DNA from: Acidimicrobiia bacterium
GTDB taxonomy: Bacteria > Actinomycetota > Acidimicrobiia > IMCC26256 > JACDBD01
Reading direction: 5' to 3'
DNA: 37,598 nt
NCBI GenBank assembly: GCA_035264545.1
Contig: DATFPZ010000219.1
Location: 1 to 37,598 of the forward strand
Below are positions 13,199-22,919 of the stretch, one piece after another. The notes beneath the pieces are model-generated. The model searched no databases and was not told where the DNA came from. It saw nothing but the letters and a program-made list of their open reading frames with translations. The first letter of the stretch is position 1, and each line of letters begins with the position of its first letter. The translations under genes were made by a program, and so were the position numbers.

Positions 13199-14154
13199 TG
13201 TTGCGGGTTGCGTCGCTCGAAGTCCGCTACGGCGACACCGTCGCGCTCGACGGCGTCGAGCTCGTCGTCGGCGACGGCGAGGTCGTGTCGGTCCTCGGAC
13301 CGAGCGGCAGCGGCAAGAGCACGCTGCTCCGCGCCGTCGCCGGCCTCGAGCCGCCGGTGCACGGCCGGGTCGAGTGGGACGGCGACGACCTCACGCGCGT
13401 GCCTCCCCACCGCCGGCAGCTGGGCTTGATGTTCCAGGACCACACCCTGTTCCCGCACCGTGATGTGCTCGGCAACGTCGTGTTCGGGCTGCGCATGCGC
13501 AACGTGCCGGCGACGCAGGCGGCCTCCCGCGCGAGCGAGCTGCTCACGCTGGTCGGGTTGGCCGGTTACGAGCACCGGCGCGTCACCGAGCTGTCGGGCG
13601 GCGAGCAGCAGCGGGTCGCGCTGGCCCGGGCGCTGGCACCAGCCCCGCGCCTGCTCATGCTCGACGAGCCACTGGGATCGCTCGACCGCGCTCTGCGGGA
13701 GCGGCTGATGGTCGAGCTGCGCGATTTGTTCACCCGCCTCGGGCTCACGTCCCTCTACGTCACCCACGACCACGACGAGGCCTTTGCGCTCGCAGACCGT
13801 GTCGCGGTCATGCACGATGGCCGCATCGAGCAACTCGGCTCGCCGGTCGACGTGTGGGAGCATCCGGCCAGCGAGTTCGTCGCGCGCTTCCTCGGATACA
13901 ACGTCACTGACGCGCTCGGCGGCGGCCGTGTCGCGGTGCGTCCCGATTCGCTGCGCGTCGACCCGGAAGGATCGATCGTGGGCGTCGTCACGGCCCGAAC
14001 GTTTCGCCGCGACCACTTCCTGCTCGAGGTGAAGGTCGCCGACGGACCGTCTTTGGAGGTGGCCGTGACCGGCGACCGCATTCCCGATGCCGGCGACCCG
14101 GTCCGCCTCACCGCCGACCCCGCCGCGATCGTGGCCCTGCCCTCTGATCGATGA
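13198..14154 (+). CDS. thiQ: thiamine ABC transporter ATP-binding protein
   Basis: Internal ATG of ORF 11734..14154, overlapping the thiP stop as TGATG. It has Walker A GPSGSGKST, signature LSGGEQQRV, Walker B LLMLDEP and a C-terminal TOBE-like domain. Confidence 0.85.
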   Translation: MLRVASLEVRYGDTVALDGVELVVGDGEVVSVLGPSGSGKSTLLRAVAGLEPPVHGRVEWDGDDLTRVPPHRRQLGLMFQDHTLFPHRDVLGNVVFGLRMRNVPATQAASRASELLTLVGLAGYEHRRVTELSGGEQQRVALARALAPAPRLLMLDEPLGSLDRALRERLMVELRDLFTRLGLTSLYVTHDHDEAFALADRVAVMHDGRIEQLGSPVDVWEHPASEFVARFLGYNVTDALGGGRVAVRPDSLRVDPEGSIVGVVTARTFRRDHFLLEVKVADGPSLEVAVTGDRIPDAGDPVRLTADPAAIVALPSDR

Positions 14155-14243
14155 CTCTCGCGACCGTCCCGTCGCGGCATCTGCACCGAATCTCCACACC
14201 CCTGGCAAGACTCCCCGAAACCGGTTCCTTATCCTGGCGTGCG

Positions 14244-14990
14244 ATGCCTCCGGCTCCCGCGGCTGCCGCCCCGGCCCGCACGATCGTCGTCGTCGAAGAC
14301 GAAGCCTCGATCGCGGCCGCGGTCGCGGCGCGGCTCCGCAGTGAGGGGTTCGTCGTCGAGATCGCGGCCGACGGACCCGGCGGGGTCGAGATGTGCGAGC
14401 GAGTTCATCCCGACCTCGTCGTGCTCGACCTGATGCTGCCGGGTCTCGACGGCCTCGAGGTATGCCGGCGCATCCAGCACGACCGACCGGTGCCGGTGCT
14501 GATGCTGACCGCCCGCGACTCGGAGACCGACATGGTCGTGGGGCTGGCCGTCGGCGCCGACGACTACCTGACGAAGCCCTTCAGCCCCCGCGAGCTCGTC
14601 GCGCGAGTGCACGCGCTCCTCCGCCGCGTCGAGCGCGCCGGCGCGGCGCCCGCCAACGCGGGCGGCATGCTGCACGTCGCCGGGGCCGACCTCGACCTCG
14701 CGACCCGCCGCGTCCGCCGGGGCGACGAGACCGTGCACCTCACCCCGACCGAGTTCGACTTGCTCGCGCATCTCGCTTCGCACCCGGGCCAGGTGTTCAC
14801 GCGCGGGCAACTGCTGCTGCAGGTATGGGGCTACCACGACGGCTCGGGTGCGCGCACCGTCGACTCGCACGTGCGGGCCGTTCGTCGCAAGTTGGGTCCC
14901 GACGTGATCCGCACGGTGCACGGTGTGGGCTACGCGGCCGACGATGCCGCCGTCACCGCCGCATCGGGCGGCACCCGGGATCGATCGTGA
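14244..14990 (+). CDS. OmpR/PhoB-family response regulator
   Basis: Internal ATG of ORF 14151..14990. The receiver domain has TIVVVEDE, DLVVLDLMLPGLDG and KPF; the winged-helix output has LTPTEFDLL and TVHGVGY. Confidence 0.9.
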   Translation: MPPAPAAAAPARTIVVVEDEASIAAAVAARLRSEGFVVEIAADGPGGVEMCERVHPDLVVLDLMLPGLDGLEVCRRIQHDRPVPVLMLTARDSETDMVVGLAVGADDYLTKPFSPRELVARVHALLRRVERAGAAPANAGGMLHVAGADLDLATRRVRRGDETVHLTPTEFDLLAHLASHPGQVFTRGQLLLQVWGYHDGSGARTVDSHVRAVRRKLGPDVIRTVHGVGYAADDAAVTAASGGTRDRS

Positions 14991-16054
14991 GCCCGCGTCG
15001 GCCGCTCGACACGGTCCCCTCCCTCAAGATCAAGCTCGGCGCCGTCATCTTCTCCGCGGTCGCCGTCACGGTGTTCGTGTACTGGGTGTGCCTCAAGGCG
15101 GGGGTGTGGCCGTCGGTCAGCGGGATCATCGCCGGTTCCGTGGCGCTGGTGATGGTGAGATTCCTCGCCCGGGGGATGACGTCGCCGTTGCGGGAGATGT
15201 CCGACGCGGCCCGGGCCATGGCCAAGGGCAACTACGACCGCCGCGTGGCGGCGACGTCGCGCGACGAGGTCGGCGAGCTGGCGCGGGCGTTCAACAAGAT
15301 GGCAGCCGAGCTCGCCGAGACCGACCGCCTGCGCCGTGATCTGGTGGCGAACGTCTCGCACGAGTTGCGCACGCCCATCGCCGCGCTGCAAGCCGTCCTC
15401 GAGAACCTCGTCGACGGGGTCGAGGATCCCGACCCGCAGACGTTCCGCACGATGCTGGCCCAGGTCGAGCGGCTTGGCCGCCTCGTCACCCAGCTCCTCG
15501 ACCTGTCGAGGTTGGAGTCGGGTGCGGTGCCGCTCGAACGGAGTGAGTTCGACGTGAAGCCCGTCCTCGAGCACGCCGTGCGCGAGCAGCAGCTCCACGC
15601 ACCGGGTGTCGACGTCGCCGTCGTGGTCGAGACGCCCGGGCTCACCGCCGACGGCGATCCCGAGCGCGTGCACCAGGTCGTCGCGAACCTGCTCGAGAAC
15701 GCAGTGCGCTACACGCCCACCGGCGGACGGGTCGAGGTCCGGGCGCGGCGCGCGGCCAACGGCCGGAGCTTCGGTCACGGCTCCGCGCCGAGCTCGACCG
15801 TGACGATCGAAGTGTGCGACGAAGGTCCCGGCATCGCCGAGGTGGAAGAGGCCCGCGTGTTCGAGCGCTTCTACCGCGCCGACACCGCCCGGGCGTCGAG
15901 CCAAGGCGGCGCCGGACTCGGCCTGGCGATCGCGCAGTGGATCGTCGACCTCCACGGTGGCGACATCCATCCCGAACGTCGCGAGCCGCACGGCTGCCGC
16001 ATGGTGGTGACGCTGCCCGGAGCGGCGGCGCAACCCGAGCGAGTCCCGAACTGA
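14987..16054 (+). CDS. sensor histidine kinase, intramembrane-sensing type (2 TM, HAMP, HisKA, HATPase)
   Basis: GTG at 14987 overlaps the regulator stop as GTGA. Two TM helices are separated by only ~7 residues (KAGVWPS). It has a HAMP domain, H-box SHELRTPIAAL, an N-box LLENAVRY and a G2 box GGAGLGLAIA. The upstream part of ORF 14393..16054 is shadow. Confidence 0.9.
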   Translation: MSPRRPLDTVPSLKIKLGAVIFSAVAVTVFVYWVCLKAGVWPSVSGIIAGSVALVMVRFLARGMTSPLREMSDAARAMAKGNYDRRVAATSRDEVGELARAFNKMAAELAETDRLRRDLVANVSHELRTPIAALQAVLENLVDGVEDPDPQTFRTMLAQVERLGRLVTQLLDLSRLESGAVPLERSEFDVKPVLEHAVREQQLHAPGVDVAVVVETPGLTADGDPERVHQVVANLLENAVRYTPTGGRVEVRARRAANGRSFGHGSAPSSTVTIEVCDEGPGIAEVEEARVFERFYRADTARASSQGGAGLGLAIAQWIVDLHGGDIHPERREPHGCRMVVTLPGAAAQPERVPN

Positions 16055-16065
16055 GGAGTGCAGCA

Positions 16066-16710
16066 ATGAAGCTGTCCACGATCGACGAGGCGCTGCGCCG
16101 GATCCGCCGGGGCGAGATGGTGCTCGTCGTCGACGACGAAGACCGTGAGAACGAAGGTGATCTCACGATGGCCGCCAGCTGGGTGACCGGCGAGGCCGTC
16201 AACTTCATGCTGCGGTGGGCCCGGGGGCTCGTCTGCATGCCGTGCGACTCCGCCCGTCTCGACGAGCTCGCCATCGAGCCGATGATCCCGGACGGACGGG
16301 CGACGTGCGACACGGCGTTCTGCGTGTCGATCGATCACGCGACCGCCGGCACCGGCATCGGCGTCGAGGACCGGGCCACGACCATTCGCAAGGTCCTCGA
16401 CGCCGGAAGTCGCTCCGGCGACTTCGTGCGGCCCGGGCACGTGTTCCCGCTGCGCGCCCGCCCCGGCGGCGTCCTCGAGCGGCGCGGCCACACCGAGGCC
16501 GCGGTGGACCTCGCCCGCCTCGCCGGGCTCCCGCCGGTGGCGGTGATCTGCGAGGTGCTCCAGGACGACGGCTCACCCGCACGGTTGTCGTTCCTCGAGA
16601 TGTTCGCCGACGAGCACCGGGTGGCGATGATCTCCGTCGACCAGATCGCCGAGCACCGCCGCGAGCTCGCCGCCGCCACCGAGCGCGCCAAGGCCCCGCT
16701 GCTGTTGTAA
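16066..16710 (+). CDS. ribB: 3,4-dihydroxy-2-butanone-4-phosphate synthase (stand-alone RibB)
   Basis: Internal ATG of ORF 15814..16710, preceded by a GAGGAG RBS, 11 nt after the kinase stop. Motifs: VVVDDEDRENEGDL, FVRPGHVFPL, RRGHTEAAVDLARLAG. There is no GTP cyclohydrolase II domain. Confidence 0.9.
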   Translation: MKLSTIDEALRRIRRGEMVLVVDDEDRENEGDLTMAASWVTGEAVNFMLRWARGLVCMPCDSARLDELAIEPMIPDGRATCDTAFCVSIDHATAGTGIGVEDRATTIRKVLDAGSRSGDFVRPGHVFPLRARPGGVLERRGHTEAAVDLARLAGLPPVAVICEVLQDDGSPARLSFLEMFADEHRVAMISVDQIAEHRRELAAATERAKAPLLL

Positions 16711-17465: not shown

Positions 17466-18104
17466 TCAGCGCACGAGCGAGAGCGTGAGGCCGGCCTGGC
17501 CCAGGTGGTACGTCACCATGATGACGACCGGCGCCCAGCTCCTCGATCCGACGAAGCGCGACTCGGCGATGAGCGCATCCGAGGCCATGAACAGCACCGC
17601 GCCGGCGGCGGCCAGCACGTTGCCCGAGGCGACGGCGCACGTGACCATCGCCGCGATCACCGCCATGTAGGCGATGAGCGGACCAACGAGCTCCTGGTGA
17701 CCGCCGGCGCGTGCTGCCCGGAGGAACCGCGCCCCGATGAGGCCTGCCACCGCGACCACCGGGACCGCCGCGACGAGGAGCGCGCCGGCGGAGCCCCCGT
17801 GCCGGGTGAGCCCGATCACGTACGCCACGTGGGCGAGGAGAAACGAGGCCAGCCCGGCGACGAAGCGATCGGACGGGAGCATCAAGAAGACATCGCCCGC
17901 GAGTGACAATGCGAGCGCGGCGACGAACCAGGCGCGCACGTCGCCGTGCCTCGCATCGAGCGTCAGCGCGACGCCGATCAGGGCGGCCAGCGCGGCCGGC
18001 TTGCACACGTATTCGAGCCGTTTGTCGTGGCGGGCGACTGCGAGCCAATCACCGGCCGCCACCACCGCCGCCACGACCAGCAGCGTCCACGCCCCCGCCG
18101 TCAC
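17466..18104 (-). CDS. YhhN-family membrane protein (lysoplasmalogenase-like)
   Basis: ORF 17466..18182 is polytopic with YhhN-type blocks (YVCKPAALAALI, LALSLAGDVFLML, FLLAHVAYVIGL). I prefer GTG 18104 because the longest start (18182) would abut the divergent sigma-gene ATG at 18184. Confidence 0.75.
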   Translation of the reverse strand: MTAGAWTLLVVAAVVAAGDWLAVARHDKRLEYVCKPAALAALIGVALTLDARHGDVRAWFVAALALSLAGDVFLMLPSDRFVAGLASFLLAHVAYVIGLTRHGGSAGALLVAAVPVVAVAGLIGARFLRAARAGGHQELVGPLIAYMAVIAAMVTCAVASGNVLAAAGAVLFMASDALIAESRFVGSRSWAPVVIMVTYHLGQAGLTLSLVR

Positions 18105-18183
18105 GGCCGACTGTCTAGCTCGAATGCGGTTCGACAGCTCCGCTCGCGACGAGTCGAGATGCCCCTCTACGCTGGTGCCCACG

Positions 18184-19761
18184 ATGCGGACGGATGCGGA
18201 ACTCGTCGCGTCGGCGCGGTCGGGTGATCGAGGGGCCCTCTCGGAGATCTACGACGGATACGCCGACCGCCTGTACGACCTGTGCACCTCGGTGCTGCGC
18301 GATCCCGAAGCGGCGTTCGACGCCATGGTGGACACGTTCGTGCTCGCGGCGCTCGAGCTGTACCGGCTGCGACGGCCGGAGAAGCTCGAGCCGTGGCTGT
18401 TCGCCCTGGCTCGCCAGCAGCTACTCGGGCGTGACATCCAGGTGGGCGTCGACGAGCACGCCGAGTTCGACGGCGCGAACGGCAAAGCAGCATCGGACGG
18501 CGCCGGCGCCATCGTGTGGGAGGCGGTGTCGTGGTTCCCGGGCAAGGACCGGATCTTGCTGGACCTGCACGCCCGTCAGCCGCTCGACAACCAGACACTG
18601 GCGGACACGCTGGGGGTGTCTCCTCCCCACGCGGCTGCGCTCGTGCGCGACCTCGACGAGAAGATGGGGCGCCAGCTGAGCGCCCTGCTGGTCGCGCGCC
18701 TGGCCCGTCCCGGCTGCGAGCACATGAAGAAGCTGATCGCCGGCGAGGACGAAGCGCACCCGGACAAGTGGCTGCGCCACGTCGCCGCGCACGTCGACAC
18801 GTGCCGGAAGTGCTCGCTCTGGCGTGAGGACCAGCCGGAACCCATGCAGCTCCTCGGCGAGGTGCCGGCGGAGCCGGCGCCACCCGAGGTCCGTGACGAG
18901 GTGCTGGACCGGGTCGACCTGCTGTGGTCGGTGCTCGGCCCGCCCGAGTGGACGGCGGCGGTGCTGGGCCAGCCCCCACCCGACGACGGGGCGGCGGACA
19001 CGTCCGTCTTGAGCGCGACGACCGACGCGCCCGCGGCGACGAGCGACGCGTTGACTACGCCGCCGGAGCCGACCGAGCCGACCCAGATCGCGGCCCCGGT
19101 CGAGGGCGCCGCCCCCGTCGAGGGCAGCCACGGCGAGGTCACCGAGCGGGAGTACGACGCGTACGACGAGGTCGAGAGCCTGGTGCCGCCGCCGCCCCGG
19201 CTGCGTCGCAGCGGGTTCCCGCGCTCGATGTATCCGCGGCGCCGCCTGTTGGTCCGCGCGGCGGTCGTCGCGATCGCGGCGGTGTTCGTCGCGGCCATCT
19301 ACACCGACTTCCGCGGGTTCGGCCGTGACACGCGGTCCTTCGCCTCCGAAACGAAGGCTGCCGCCCCCCGGGAGAAGAAGCCGCCCGCCGCCACCACTAC
19401 GCCGCCGACGACCGCTCCACCCGTCACCACCGTTGCACCAGGGCCCGACACTCGCGGGCCGATCGTGTACAACCTCGCGACCGTCTTCGGATGCATCGGC
19501 CCTCGACAGACCACGACATCGGCCCTGGCCAGCGTGGTCGATCCCGGGGACCACCTGGCGTCGGTGGAGCTCGTGTTCGTCGACACCCCGTCGGGCGCCG
19601 AGACACGCAAGAGGATGACGGCCTCCGGTGGGGCGTTCGAAGCACCCATCGGCCCCTACACGGCCGACGGCACCATCACGTGGCGGGTCGAGGCGTCCGA
19701 CGAGGCCGGGAACTCGTCGAACGCCGAAGGCCCGGCGGTGGCGGCGTCTGCCCTCTGTTGA
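18184..19761 (+). CDS. ECF-type sigma factor fused to a ZAS anti-sigma motif, TM helix and extracytoplasmic C-terminal domain (525 aa)
   Basis: Internal ATG of ORF 17737..19761. A sigma-2-like region (RLYDLCTSVLRDPEAAFDAMVDTFVLAA...EPWLFALARQQL) is followed by a sigma-4-like HTH (ILLDLHARQPLDNQTLADTLGVSPPHAAALVRDL). Next come C-x..-H-x3-C-x2-C (PGCEH...HVDTCRKC), a Pro-rich linker and the TM helix LLVRAAVVAIAAVFVAAIY. A Thr/Pro linker and a ~110-aa terminal domain complete the protein. Confidence 0.75.
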   Translation: MRTDAELVASARSGDRGALSEIYDGYADRLYDLCTSVLRDPEAAFDAMVDTFVLAALELYRLRRPEKLEPWLFALARQQLLGRDIQVGVDEHAEFDGANGKAASDGAGAIVWEAVSWFPGKDRILLDLHARQPLDNQTLADTLGVSPPHAAALVRDLDEKMGRQLSALLVARLARPGCEHMKKLIAGEDEAHPDKWLRHVAAHVDTCRKCSLWREDQPEPMQLLGEVPAEPAPPEVRDEVLDRVDLLWSVLGPPEWTAAVLGQPPPDDGAADTSVLSATTDAPAATSDALTTPPEPTEPTQIAAPVEGAAPVEGSHGEVTEREYDAYDEVESLVPPPPRLRRSGFPRSMYPRRRLLVRAAVVAIAAVFVAAIYTDFRGFGRDTRSFASETKAAAPREKKPPAATTTPPTTAPPVTTVAPGPDTRGPIVYNLATVFGCIGPRQTTTSALASVVDPGDHLASVELVFVDTPSGAETRKRMTASGGAFEAPIGPYTADGTITWRVEASDEAGNSSNAEGPAVAASALC

Positions 19762-19787
19762 CCCATGCCCCGCCAAGTGGCCCACGC

Positions 19788-20378
19788 TCACGGCGCCAAC
19801 CGCTCCCGCACCCACCCGTCGTCCAGGCGGCGATACCGCACGCGATCGTGCAGCCGGTTCGGCCGCCCCTCCCACAGCTCGACCTCGTCGGGCGTGACCA
19901 CGTAGCCGCCCCACGAGTCCGGCAGCGGCGGGTCGTCGCCATAGCGGGCGGCGGCCGCTTCGTATGCCGCTTCGAGCTCGGCCCGGTCGGCGACGACCTC
20001 GCTCTGGGGCGAGACCAGCGCGCTGAGGCGACTCCCGAGCGGACGGTTGCGCCAGTACGCCAGTGACTCCTCGCGCGAGAGCCGCGCGACTGTCCCCGTT
20101 GCCCGCACCTGCCGTTCGACTTCCCGCCAGTGGAACACGACCGCAGCCCGCGGGTTGTCGTCGAGGTCGCGGGCCTTCGGGCTGCGGTAGTTCGTGTAGA
20201 ACGCGAAGCCGCGCTCGTCGAAGCCTCGCAGCGACACGGTTCGGGCCGATGGCATGCCGTCGCGGCCGGCGGTTGCGATCGTCATCGCGTCGGGCTCGCG
20301 GACGCCCTCGGCCATTGCCTCGTCGATCCAGTCCCGAAACTGCACGATTGGGTCGGGATGAACGTTGCGCTCGTCCAC
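19788..20378 (-). CDS. pdxH: pyridoxamine 5'-phosphate oxidase
   Basis: ORF 19788..20453. PdxH blocks are present: EPDAMTIAT, RTVSLRGFDERGFAFYTNY, FHWREVERQVR, WGGY, ELWEGRPNRLHDR, ERLAP. The start is uncertain: GTG 20378, or TTG 20453, which would overlap the divergent VOC gene by 28 nt. Confidence 0.8.
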   Translation of the reverse strand: MDERNVHPDPIVQFRDWIDEAMAEGVREPDAMTIATAGRDGMPSARTVSLRGFDERGFAFYTNYRSPKARDLDDNPRAAVVFHWREVERQVRATGTVARLSREESLAYWRNRPLGSRLSALVSPQSEVVADRAELEAAYEAAAARYGDDPPLPDSWGGYVVTPDEVELWEGRPNRLHDRVRYRRLDDGWVRERLAP

Positions 20379-20425: not shown

Positions 20426-20962
20426 ATGGGCTTTCACCATGTCGCGGTCGCAACTCGGAACGTCGCCGCGACCCACGCTTTCTACACGGAGGCCATGGGC
20501 TTCGACCTGGTGAAGGTCGAGGCGGCCGCGACCGATGGTGGCGGCTGGGCCCGGCACCTGTTCTACGACACGCACGGCCAAGGCCTGATCGCGTTCTGGG
20601 ACATCCACGACGACGAGAACGTCCCCACCGAGTTCGAGCCTTCGCTCTCCGCCGGGCTGGGTCTCCCGATCTGGACCAACCATCTCGCGTTCGATGCCGG
20701 CGATCTCGCCGGGATCGAGGCGCACAAGCGCCGGTGGCTCGACGCCGGGCACGACGTCGCCGAGATCGATCACGGATGGTGCACGTCGATCTACGCGGTC
20801 GACCCCAACGGGACGCTGGTGGAGTTCTGTGCGACCACGAAGCCCTTCACGGACGCCGACCGCGAGGACGCGCAGCGGATGTTGACCGAGGCGAATCCGC
20901 CGCTCAAGGAAGCGCCGGCACCGACGTTCCACCAGGCTCAGAAGACCGTCGCCACCACCTAG
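20426..20962 (+). CDS. VOC (glyoxalase/bleomycin-resistance/dioxygenase) family protein
   Basis: Internal ATG of ORF 20063..20962, preceded by a GGGAGGG RBS. MGFHHVAVATRNVAATHAFYTEAMGF... and HLAFDAGD...DPNGTLVEF are typical paired beta-alpha-beta-beta-beta modules. Confidence 0.8.
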   Translation: MGFHHVAVATRNVAATHAFYTEAMGFDLVKVEAAATDGGGWARHLFYDTHGQGLIAFWDIHDDENVPTEFEPSLSAGLGLPIWTNHLAFDAGDLAGIEAHKRRWLDAGHDVAEIDHGWCTSIYAVDPNGTLVEFCATTKPFTDADREDAQRMLTEANPPLKEAPAPTFHQAQKTVATT

Positions 20963-20972
20963 ACGTTCGCGC

Positions 20973-22193
20973 ATGGCCCGGACCACGCGCGTCGGCCGCT
21001 ACGACAACCCGTACGCGGTCGCGGAGTGGAGCCGCCCGCCACCTACCGGGACGGTCTGTGAGCCGCTCGTGCTCGAGACGGCCGACCGGGCGGTCGCCGG
21101 CGGATGGCTGTACGCACGCGGCGGCGAGACCACCGCCGTGCTGCTCGTCCACCCGCGGGCGAACTTCTCGCACCACTACGCCGTCCCCGGGTTGGTCGAT
21201 GCCGGGTACGCGGTGCTGTGCCTCAACACGCGTTGGCTGAACAACGACTCGACCCTGCTCCACGAGGTCGTCCTCCTCGACGTGGCCGCGGGCGTGGCCG
21301 CACTGCGAAAGCGCTACGACCGCGTCGTGATGTGCGGAAACTCGGGCGGCGGCTCGCTGCTCACGTTCTACGTGCAGCAGTCGAGCGCCACCGGGGCACG
21401 CCTGAAGGACACCGCGGCGGGCGATCCGTTCGACCTCGACCGCTTCGACCTGCCGCCCGCCGACGCCATGGTGTACCTCGCCGCGCACGTCGGCGAGGGC
21501 TTCTACCTGCTGCGTGCCATCGACGCCTCCGTGACCGACGAGAACGACCCGGTGTCGTGCGACCCCGCACTCGACCTGTACGACCCCGCCAACGGGTTCG
21601 TCGAACCACCTGGCGACACGCGGTACGAACCCGAGTTCGTGAAGCGCTACCGCGATGCGCAGCGAGCCCGCGTCGAGCGCCTCGACGCGCTGGCGCGGGA
21701 ACGAGTGGCGCGGCGGCGCGAGGCACGCGCGCGGTGGGACCAGTCCGGATCGGTCGGCGATCGCCGGCGCTCGATCGCCACCGACTTCCTCACCGTGTAC
21801 CGCACCGACGCCGACCCGCGCTTCGTGGACCTCTCGCTGGACCCGTCACGGCGCACCGTCGGCTCGCTGTGGGGTGTGCGCCCCGACTGGATCAACTACG
21901 GCGCCGTGGGGTTCGGCCGGATCGTGTCGCCGGAGGCGTGGCTGTCGACGTGGTCGGGCTTGTCGTCGCGGGCGTCGATCGAACGTACCGGTCCCGGGAT
22001 GACGCTTCCCGCGCTCGTCGTGAGCTACTCGGGCGACCACGGCATCTTCCCGTCCGACACCGACCTGATCGCAACATCGCTCGCGGCGCCCCGCGTCGAC
22101 CGCGTCGAGATCGACTCCGACCATTACGGTCTGCCCACCGGCCGCGACGAGGCTGTCCTCGCCATCGCCGACTGGATCGACGCCACCGGCTGA
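20973..22193 (+). CDS. alpha/beta-fold hydrolase
   Basis: 406-aa ORF with the nucleophile elbow GNSGGG after VVMC, the HP oxyanion-like LLVHPR and a C-terminal SDHYG (His). Its function is unknown. Confidence 0.75.
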   Translation: MARTTRVGRYDNPYAVAEWSRPPPTGTVCEPLVLETADRAVAGGWLYARGGETTAVLLVHPRANFSHHYAVPGLVDAGYAVLCLNTRWLNNDSTLLHEVVLLDVAAGVAALRKRYDRVVMCGNSGGGSLLTFYVQQSSATGARLKDTAAGDPFDLDRFDLPPADAMVYLAAHVGEGFYLLRAIDASVTDENDPVSCDPALDLYDPANGFVEPPGDTRYEPEFVKRYRDAQRARVERLDALARERVARRREARARWDQSGSVGDRRRSIATDFLTVYRTDADPRFVDLSLDPSRRTVGSLWGVRPDWINYGAVGFGRIVSPEAWLSTWSGLSSRASIERTGPGMTLPALVVSYSGDHGIFPSDTDLIATSLAAPRVDRVEIDSDHYGLPTGRDEAVLAIADWIDATG

Positions 22194-22198
22194 CGGGT

Positions 22199-22864
22199 CT
22201 AGACGCGCGTGTCGTCGGTGGACGGGAAACGGAACATCTCGAACAGGCGCTCGGCGTCGGCGTGATCGCCTTCCAGGCACATGCGGCCCGAGCTGATCGC
22301 GGCGTCGACGTCCATCGACCCGGTGAGCAGCTCGCTCATGACGCCAAGTGCGGCCTCGATCACGACGTCCGGCTCCTGCGACGATGACGCCGGGATCGAC
22401 GCCTTTCCGCCCTTGACTGCGATGCGAAGGGACTTGCCGCCGATCCTCAACTCGTACACGCGCTGCGGTCCGCGCGCCTTCTCCGGATGGAAGGCACCGC
22501 GCAACGCGAGCGCCAGCGAGTCCATGCTGATGAAGTCGCCCTTCTCGGGCCCGCGCAGCCCCTTGGCGCCCCAGAACCCGAGTTGCAGCACGACCCCCTC
22601 CAGCTCGAGGCCGTACTCGGTGAGCGCATAGACGACGCCGCCACCCGGGCGATCTTGCACCTGCCGCTGCACGATCCCGGCCTCCTCGAGCTCGCGGAGC
22701 CGGGACGTCAACACGTTCGTGGGAATCCCGGGCAGGCCCTCCTGCAGCTCCCCGAAGCGCTTCGGCCCCGTGAGGAGATCACGCACGACGAGGAGAGCCC
22801 ACCGCCCGCCCACCACGTCGAGCGCGCGGGCCACACCGCAGTACTGCCCGTAGCCACGTGTCAC
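22199..22864 (-). CDS. HxlR-family winged-helix regulator fused to a C-terminal SCP2-like domain
   Basis: ORF 22199..22918 (TTG). I prefer GTG 22864 (VTRGYGQYCGVARALDVVGGRWALLVVRDLLTGPKRFGELQ...). The HxlR core is followed by a ~110-aa SCP2-type tail (...CLEGDHADAERLFEMF). Confidence 0.8.
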   Translation of the reverse strand: MTRGYGQYCGVARALDVVGGRWALLVVRDLLTGPKRFGELQEGLPGIPTNVLTSRLRELEEAGIVQRQVQDRPGGGVVYALTEYGLELEGVVLQLGFWGAKGLRGPEKGDFISMDSLALALRGAFHPEKARGPQRVYELRIGGKSLRIAVKGGKASIPASSSQEPDVVIEAALGVMSELLTGSMDVDAAISSGRMCLEGDHADAERLFEMFRFPSTDDTRV

Positions 22865-22904
22865 ACCACGAGTATGCCCGGCTCCCTTGACTTTCGCAAG
22901 GTTA

Positions 22905-22919
22905 CTTGCTAAAAGCAAG
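22905..22919. promoter_or_regulatory. candidate operator palindrome in the divergent HxlR/MFS promoter region
   Basis: CTTGCT-AAA-AGCAAG is a perfect 6+6 inverted repeat. It lies in the lowest-GC stretch between the two divergent genes. Confidence 0.4.

Follow-up and report, generated by a model that had tools for sequence, protein, structure and literature searches.

The 37,598-nucleotide contig DATFPZ010000219.1 of an Acidimicrobiia bacterium (assembly GCA_035264545.1), referred to in full as the window, encodes a single protein that combines an extracytoplasmic function (ECF) sigma factor, a ZAS-type zinc anti-sigma domain, one transmembrane (TM) helix and an immunoglobulin-like (Ig-like) ectodomain. 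The fusion gene, located at 18184-19761 on the + strand, is real and conserved. By analogy with related systems, its product is probably a cis-inhibited, membrane-anchored ECF sigma factor that regulated proteolysis sets free in response to an extracytoplasmic signal. The architecture is already known from other Actinobacteria and the instance in the window adds little new. The one feature worth an experiment is an Arg-to-Asp remodelling of the sigma-4 domain, which sets the clade of the window protein apart from its wider family.

The fusion gene and its integrity

The reading frame at 18184-19761 translates into 525 residues free of stops. A preliminary description of this DNA, made from the sequence alone, had proposed a fusion of sigma, ZAS, TM and ectodomain parts in one 525-residue open reading frame (ORF), and the translation, independently assembled contigs and more than 100 full-length homologues all bear this out. 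An in-frame upstream extension to 17737 is possible but overlaps the divergent YhhN gene. Homologues of 511-545 aa all begin at the same Met as the window ORF. Because the homologues share this Met and the longer extension runs into the YhhN gene, the start is placed at 18184. The window has a G+C content of ~70%, and its top protein matches are metagenome-assembled genomes (MAGs) of soil Acidimicrobiia. The G+C content at third codon positions (GC3) is 0.80-1.00 in the fusion frame in each segment of the gene, both low-complexity linkers included.

A sequencing frameshift joining two separate genes was one of the concerns raised in the preliminary description, and evidence for such an event was looked for. 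The entire gene is present, free of gaps, in contigs of two short-read soil metagenomes obtained independently, with 10 substitutions in the contig of run X1 (18089-19850) and 19 substitutions in that of run X3 (18052-19850). In addition, more than 70 homologues from many assemblies are intact over their full length. The gap-free contigs, the intact homologues and the GC3 profile, which is high throughout one frame, rule out a frameshift as the origin of the fusion. An origin of the fusion by frameshift or misjoin between a sigma gene and an independent anti-sigma gene hence has next to no probability. The region itself is prone to errors, as four long-read MFD MAG loci (L015, L018, L019 and L021) are frameshifted in the low-complexity linker, but these frameshifts disrupt the fusion rather than produce one. 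The orthologues at the four loci are called as products of 295-383 aa or 648 aa, and the frameshifts in their GC-rich linker are probably long-read indel errors rather than signs of pseudogenes. A comparison of linker indels at the DNA level gave no information, since low-complexity sequence of this kind aligns ambiguously. Two RNA runs produced only spurious matches of 18-21 nt and no usable transcript reads.

The sigma module

The N-terminal sigma-2 domain (aa 1-85; 18184-18438, + strand) is matched at residues 3-84 by many NCBIfam ECF models, with a best E-value of 9.4e-9, and a family profile built from 17 members matches SigW at E=5.5e-7. The domain is modelled with a predicted local distance difference test (pLDDT) score above 90. 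The sigma-4 domain (aa 106-174; 18499-18705, + strand) follows after a linker of only ~20 aa, and neither a sigma-1.1 nor a sigma-3 region is present, which is the layout of ECF sigma factors. TIGR02937 aligns residues 18-157 of the protein to positions 2-157 of its 165 (E=3e-4, under the cut-off), and with the family profile residues 3-169 of the protein align to AlgU. Together with the fold matches described below, these results confirm the sigma-2-like region and the sigma-4-like helix-turn-helix of the preliminary description. The profile searches suggested there had a mixed outcome, with matches to the NCBIfam ECF models and the family profile but a Pfam Sigma70_r2 score of 19.9 bits (E=6.5e-4), under the gathering score of 24.

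Relatives in the wider family are more readily recognized. Their Sigma70_r2 scores of 35-52 bits lie above the gathering score, one of them (P0217) passes the gathering score of Sigma70_r4_2 with 30.1 bits, and TIGR02937 matches reach E=2.9e-22. The sigma-2 domain is hence homologous to Sigma70_r2, as seen in the NCBIfam and SigW profile matches and in relatives above the Pfam cut-off. Based on the profile matches, the fold matches and the relatives that exceed the cut-offs, the wider family is judged from sequence to be a bona fide ECF family, with the window protein in a divergent branch of it.

A full-length AlphaFold model, computed with an input of 74 sequences, is confident at residues 1-90 and 106-260, in the TM helix and at residues 421-525. 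The modelled sigma part superposes with both domains on SigW of the SigW-RsiW complex (PDB 5wuq; TM-score 0.79) and on CnrH of the CnrH-CnrY complex (TM-score 0.78), and reaches TM-scores of only ~0.4 against AlgU-MucA and sigmaE-RseA. The superposition on SigW and CnrH thus indicates that sigma-2 and sigma-4 are compact in the model, similar to ECF sigma factors bound by an anti-sigma factor. The ZAS helices would presumably be docked on the sigma module.

The anti-sigma domain

The ZAS-type domain (aa 175-260; 18706-18963, + strand) contains the motif C178-x24-H203-x3-C207-x2-C210 and is modelled with pLDDT >90. Among 74 sequences, H203, C207 and C210 never vary and C178 hardly does (at least 90% conserved), and all four residues are invariant in a wider set including relatives of 35-40% identity. 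The H-x3-C-x2-C motif with an upstream Cys ligand, as first read from the sequence, therefore stands. With the family profile, residues 176-263 align to RsrA (E=1.2e-3), and TIGR03988, the RsrA equivalog model, matches at E=5e-3 with 16.8 bits against a cut-off of 62.5. A proposed search with the Pfam profile zf-HC2 found no match in the window protein, and relatives match this profile weakly (E ~1e-3).

Membrane anchor, linkers and ectodomain

The ZAS domain is followed by an acidic linker rich in Pro, Ala and Thr (aa 261-330; 18964-19173, + strand) with a net charge of -14. The linker is disordered according to the model (pLDDT <50) and represents an insertion particular to the Acidimicrobiia clade, since the alignment shows wider relatives to be devoid of it. 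It harbors the 18-nt tandem duplication noticed earlier in a Pro-rich spacer, which extends over 19089-19125 in 2.1 copies with 89% matches. Next to the membrane on the cytoplasmic side lies the motif PPPPRLRRSGFPRSMYPRRR (aa 335-354; 19186-19245, + strand), in which P335, L340, G344, P346 and R353 are invariant among the 74 sequences. Its GFPxPxxP core is also found in distant relatives, and the motif could be a docking site for a protease or a partner.

The only hydrophobic segment of the protein is the TM helix at aa 355-375 (19246-19308, + strand; Kyte-Doolittle maximum 2.48), which corresponds to a helix at residues 351-376 in the model and agrees with the single TM helix first described. 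A charge patch of +6 precedes the helix on its N-terminal side. The single helix and the position of the patch point to an N-in/C-out orientation, and the sigma part is thus placed in the cytoplasm. Outside the membrane, a linker rich in Thr, Pro and Ala (aa 376-420; 19309-19443, + strand; pLDDT <50) leads to the ectodomain.

The ectodomain (aa 421-525; 19444-19758, + strand) is modelled as a beta-sandwich of 105 residues with a pLDDT of 92.6. Its best Foldseek matches, at TMq 0.5-0.68, are to the Ig-like domain of PPAD, to CBM56, to a macroglobulin domain, to glycoside hydrolase accessory domains and to FN3, and Big_13 of Pfam matches weakly. The Thr/Pro linker and the C-terminal domain ending in Cys were described correctly before, whereas the fold, then considered unknown, is Ig-like. 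The terminal Ig-like domain is common to the whole family, with D422, P426, C437, D453, W500, D506 and C525 as shared residues. Both C437 and the C-terminal C525 are invariant, which makes a disulfide between them likely. NPCBM (smart00776), the ectodomain expected of ECF52, has no match in the window protein at E≤1. Among ten long relatives, all contain BACON_2 or Big_13 and none contains NPCBM. The Ig-like domain of the sigma fusions also recurs 27 times in the giant protein P0209 (2960 aa) and 17 times in P0238 (2663 aa), which places it in a family of repeat domains from large surface proteins.

Distribution of the family

Full-length homologues number more than 100, share 39-98% identity and originate from MAGs assigned to Acidimicrobiia or to 'Actinomycetota'. 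More distant relatives, one of them from Actinophytocola glycyrrhizae, are 43-46% identical across the N-terminal half. These exceed the gathering score of Sigma70_r2, match zf-HC2 weakly and in many cases carry BACON_2. A search of the family profile against 1.84 billion cluster representatives retrieved 2114 proteins at E≤1e-30, with more than 150 at E<1e-100 over the whole profile. The family is thus large and its members retain the complete architecture.

A proposed mechanism and its relation to known systems

The protein probably functions as a transmembrane signal transducer in one polypeptide, consisting of a cytoplasmic ECF sigma module, the ZAS domain directly after it, an acidic tether of ~95 residues, the TM helix, the Thr/Pro linker and the Ig-like domain. 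The anatomy is that found in the present analysis, and the activation steps are proposed by analogy. In the resting state suggested by the model, the ZAS domain would hold sigma-2 and sigma-4 in a compact form incompetent for RNA polymerase, as in SigW-RsiW. Following what is established for IutY and proposed for ECF52 and ECF53, a signal at the ectodomain or the linker would trigger site-1 cleavage. An intramembrane site-2 protease might then cut the Ala-rich TM helix, and cytoplasmic proteases could finally trim the tether and the ZAS domain, leaving the sigma module free to bind core RNA polymerase.

In the actinobacterial groups ECF48, ECF52 and ECF53, the sigma factor is fused to ZAS and TM parts, and proteolysis is predicted to activate it (PMC8999054). 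ECF52 proteins occur only in Actinobacteria and possess a zinc finger, TM helices, a Pro-rich extension and a carbohydrate-binding module besides the ECF domain, and the sigma domain of the ECF52 member SCO4117 of Streptomyces coelicolor is active alone (PMC5826349). The preliminary description had stated that cis-fused ECF groups exist in Actinobacteria and are poorly characterised, in agreement with this literature and with the proteolytic release proposed in it (PMC8999054; PMC5826349). The window protein resembles ECF52 (SCO4117), ECF48 and ECF53 in its single chain of sigma, ZAS, TM, Pro-rich extracytoplasmic linker and outside domain, as well as in the restriction to Actinobacteria. Compared by description, it has the sigma domain, zinc finger, TM segment and Pro-rich extension of ECF52 (PMC5826349). 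The protein differs from SCO4117 by a small Ig-like sandwich with Big_13/BACON-type relatives instead of an NPCBM module, by the additional acidic cytoplasmic linker and by Asp at two canonical Arg positions of sigma-4. Activation by regulated intramembrane proteolysis has been shown experimentally for one fusion only, IutY (ECF243) of Pseudomonas putida, which Prc and RseP release (PMC8999054). IutY likewise has a sigma factor fused at its C-terminus to a membrane-spanning anti-sigma part. However, its anti-sigma part is of the FecR type and has no ZAS motif, it serves Gram-negative cell-surface signalling through TonB receptors, and its extension is not homologous. By sequence and by fold, the sigma and ZAS parts are best matched by the class I ZAS anti-sigma/ECF sigma pairs RsiW-SigW (PDB 5wuq) and RsrA-SigR (PDB 5frf), which share HxxxCxxC with an upstream Cys and, going by the model, the compact sigma. 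Each of these systems consists of two proteins though, in contrast to the one chain of the window protein with no linker between sigma-4 and anti-sigma domain.

Charge change at the promoter-contact surfaces

In ECF holoenzymes, the -35 element is recognized through region 4.2, and the stretch following region 2.4 is located near the -10 element and the template DNA. Charge at both surfaces differs between the window clade and the wider family. The recognition helix of sigma-4 (aa 147-166; 18622-18681, + strand) has Asp156 and Asp158 where relatives have Arg. In a HMMER alignment, the recognition helix of AlgU, VGTVRSRIFRAR, is paired with PPHAAALVRDLD of the window protein, so that four Arg of AlgU fall on A151, L153, D156 and D158. 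A census of the helix in all sequences fetched recovered Asp or Glu at positions 156 and 158 in 84 sequences, which constitute the window clade, versus Arg or Lys in 69 sequences of the wider family with the motif HAYVLxSRLRxQVERS. The register of the helix is anchored by H149, A150 and R163, with no indels. A census of net charge showed the end of region 2.4 and the start of the sigma-2/sigma-4 linker (aa 81-100; 18424-18483, + strand) to be acidic in the window clade. The 17 residues after region 2.4 average a net charge of -3.1 in the clade (n=84) versus +2.1 in the wider family (n=69). The basic promoter-contact residues expected of an ECF sigma factor in the region 4.2 helix and after region 2.4 are hence not those found in the window clade, and R155, K160 and R163 are retained on the helix.

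The altered helix residues are nearly invariant within the window clade, and the orthologue P0107 keeps both Arg at the same syntenic locus. The change is therefore best regarded as a derived and selected state. It may reflect either a new promoter specificity or a loss of promoter reading. Under the proteolytic release model, an unusual promoter specificity would be expected in the window clade.

Alternative explanations

Several observations weigh against a conventional sigma factor freed by proteolysis. The acidic helix and the acidic tract after region 2.4 cast doubt on normal promoter reading, and the window clade scores under the curated Pfam and NCBIfam cut-offs for every sigma model. 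No ECF-type promoter (GGAAC/CGT-type; -35 'AAC' and -10 'CGT') is conserved in 17 aligned upstream regions. Since nothing there resembles the usual ECF -35/-10 pattern, autoregulation is not indicated. Neither a protease gene nor any other partner gene was found in the 37.6-kb window. Sigma-4 abuts the ZAS domain with no linker in between, and given this arrangement it is hard to see how a processive protease would halt before sigma-4.

The charge of both surfaces, the four AlgU Arg replaced by A, L, D and D, a Sigma70_r2 score lowered to 19.9 bits, compared with 35-52 bits in relatives, and the upstream regions devoid of a conserved ECF-type promoter would all fit a pseudo-sigma that keeps the fold and the ZAS clamp and no longer reads promoters. 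Such a protein might, for instance, compete for the RNA polymerase core from its membrane anchor or mimic a sigma factor in a PhyR-like partner switch. PhyR, a sigma-mimic anti-anti-sigma factor of Alphaproteobacteria (cited in PMC7826278), is a precedent for an ECF-like domain that no longer reads promoters. PhyR is soluble and fused to a receiver domain, with neither ZAS nor TM, and its homology is limited to the ECF fold. The window clade (at least 84 sequences) would then have descended in situ from a true fused ECF sigma factor, because P0107 with both Arg occupies the same locus, and would signal other than by promoter recognition. We consider this unlikely. Sigma-2, sigma-4 and ZAS are the most conserved regions of the protein, and the near-invariance of the changed residues fits a new specificity equally well. 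R155, K160 and R163 are still on the helix, the position of P0107 suggests continuity of the role, and charge by itself is no proof of lost DNA binding.

Release might also require no proteolysis. If the ZAS domain were oxidized or lost its zinc, as happens in RsrA, the cis clamp could loosen and allow the sigma module to engage RNA polymerase while still bound to the membrane through the flexible ~95-residue linker, in the manner of membrane-bound transcription factors such as ToxR and CadC. The RsrA-like spacing of C-x24-H-x3-C-x2-C, the match of the family profile to RsrA and the long, disordered and clade-specific acidic linker between ZAS and membrane are consistent with such a mode. This scenario is nonetheless less likely still, given that the RsrA equivalog model stays far under its cut-off and that the conserved, folded ectodomain with its invariant Cys pair argues for an extracytoplasmic rather than a purely cytoplasmic redox input. 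Additionally, no membrane-tethered sigma factor acting in this way is on record in PMC8999054. Regulated proteolysis of a cis-inhibited sigma factor is hence the explanation we favor.

Genomic neighborhood and intergenic region

The divergent gene upstream encodes a membrane protein of the YhhN family (17466-18104, - strand; PF07947, E=2.6e-37) and starts with GTG at 18104, which confirms the divergent arrangement and the intergenic region at 18105-18183 reported earlier. Also upstream of the fusion are a DUF1918 protein on the - strand and, on the + strand, an OmpR-type response regulator, a histidine kinase and DHBP synthase. The latter three (14151-16710, + strand) are arranged head to tail, the kinase being of the HAMP type and the DHBP synthase (ribB) standing alone, and their order is kept in all related Acidimicrobiia loci. 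Downstream of the fusion lie a convergent pyridoxamine-phosphate oxidase, a glyoxalase, a 406-aa ORF, an HxlR-SCP2 protein and an MFS transporter. The HxlR-SCP2 gene (22199-22918, - strand) joins an HxlR-type helix-turn-helix and an SCP2 sterol/lipid-transfer domain in a single ORF, an unusual pairing. The glyoxalase (20426-22193 region) matches the gene at L001:6223-7638 with 97% over the first 174 residues only. A frameshift in the glyoxalase was considered and dismissed, as the L001 gene simply differs past residue 174. The unannotated 406-aa ORF (20973-22193) has no Pfam match and is located where the window and L001 loci diverge. Scans of the window with Rfam and for tRNAs found nothing, including no FMN riboswitch.

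Acidimicrobiia loci preserve this gene order even where protein identity is as low as 43%. In the loci examined of Pseudonocardiales-type relatives, no YhhN gene is found beside the sigma gene, which is instead followed by a Pro-rich secreted protein with a C-terminus resembling a sorting signal and, after that, a sortase. The combination, located at L029:6558-7660 and L031:6459-7579, points to a cell-surface regulon in the Pseudonocardiales-type branch, which includes Actinophytocola glycyrrhizae. The secreted proteins are 175-179 aa long, and in their C-terminus ...NRIDTG(A/G)G precedes a hydrophobic helix and a basic tail. YhhN had been put forward as a plausible target of the sigma factor. 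The pairing amounts to synteny within the Acidimicrobiia lineage, and a regulatory link beyond this is not supported.

The preliminary description had also proposed to search the intergenic region for an ECF-type promoter, and the alignment of 17 loci revealed only conserved hexamers resembling -10 elements. TGTCTA at 18112-18117 is invariant; on the - strand it gives TAGACA, which ends 7 nt ahead of the GTG of yhhN. TCTAnnCT at 18166-18173 is likewise invariant, and the TACGCT contained in it ends 10 nt before the ATG of the sigma gene. A semi-conserved TCGCGA (18144-18149) is located 18 nt upstream of TACGCT. The corresponding sequence at the P0107 locus (L030) is TTCTACCAT, with 6 nt between it and the ATG. 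No Shine-Dalgarno sequence is visible before yhhN or the sigma fusion. The TA-containing hexamers resemble the TANNNT-type -10 elements of actinobacterial mRNAs that are leaderless or nearly so. Motif searches of the window for ECF-type promoters produced counts at chance level, with two near matches that looked irrelevant, and a generic scan of the intergenic region for promoters and terminators found no canonical sigma-70 or terminator consensus.

Implications

Of all routes of ECF signalling, the one through fused sigma/anti-sigma proteins has been studied least. A mechanism has been shown for IutY only, and among the actinobacterial fused groups SCO4117 alone was examined experimentally. 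The present analysis describes a large family with this fusion design and a small Ig-like sensor, which extends from Pseudonocardiales-type relatives to uncultured soil Acidimicrobiia. If the window clade did consist of pseudo-sigmas, both DNA-contact patches would be inverted in charge while fold, ZAS clamp, anchor and sensor remain under strong purifying selection, and signalling might proceed for example by titrating the RNA polymerase core or a partner protein. P0107 with Arg and the window protein with Asp provide a natural pair of orthologues at one locus for investigating the evolution of sigma-4 specificity. The same pair could show whether a sigma factor can become a module that no longer binds DNA.

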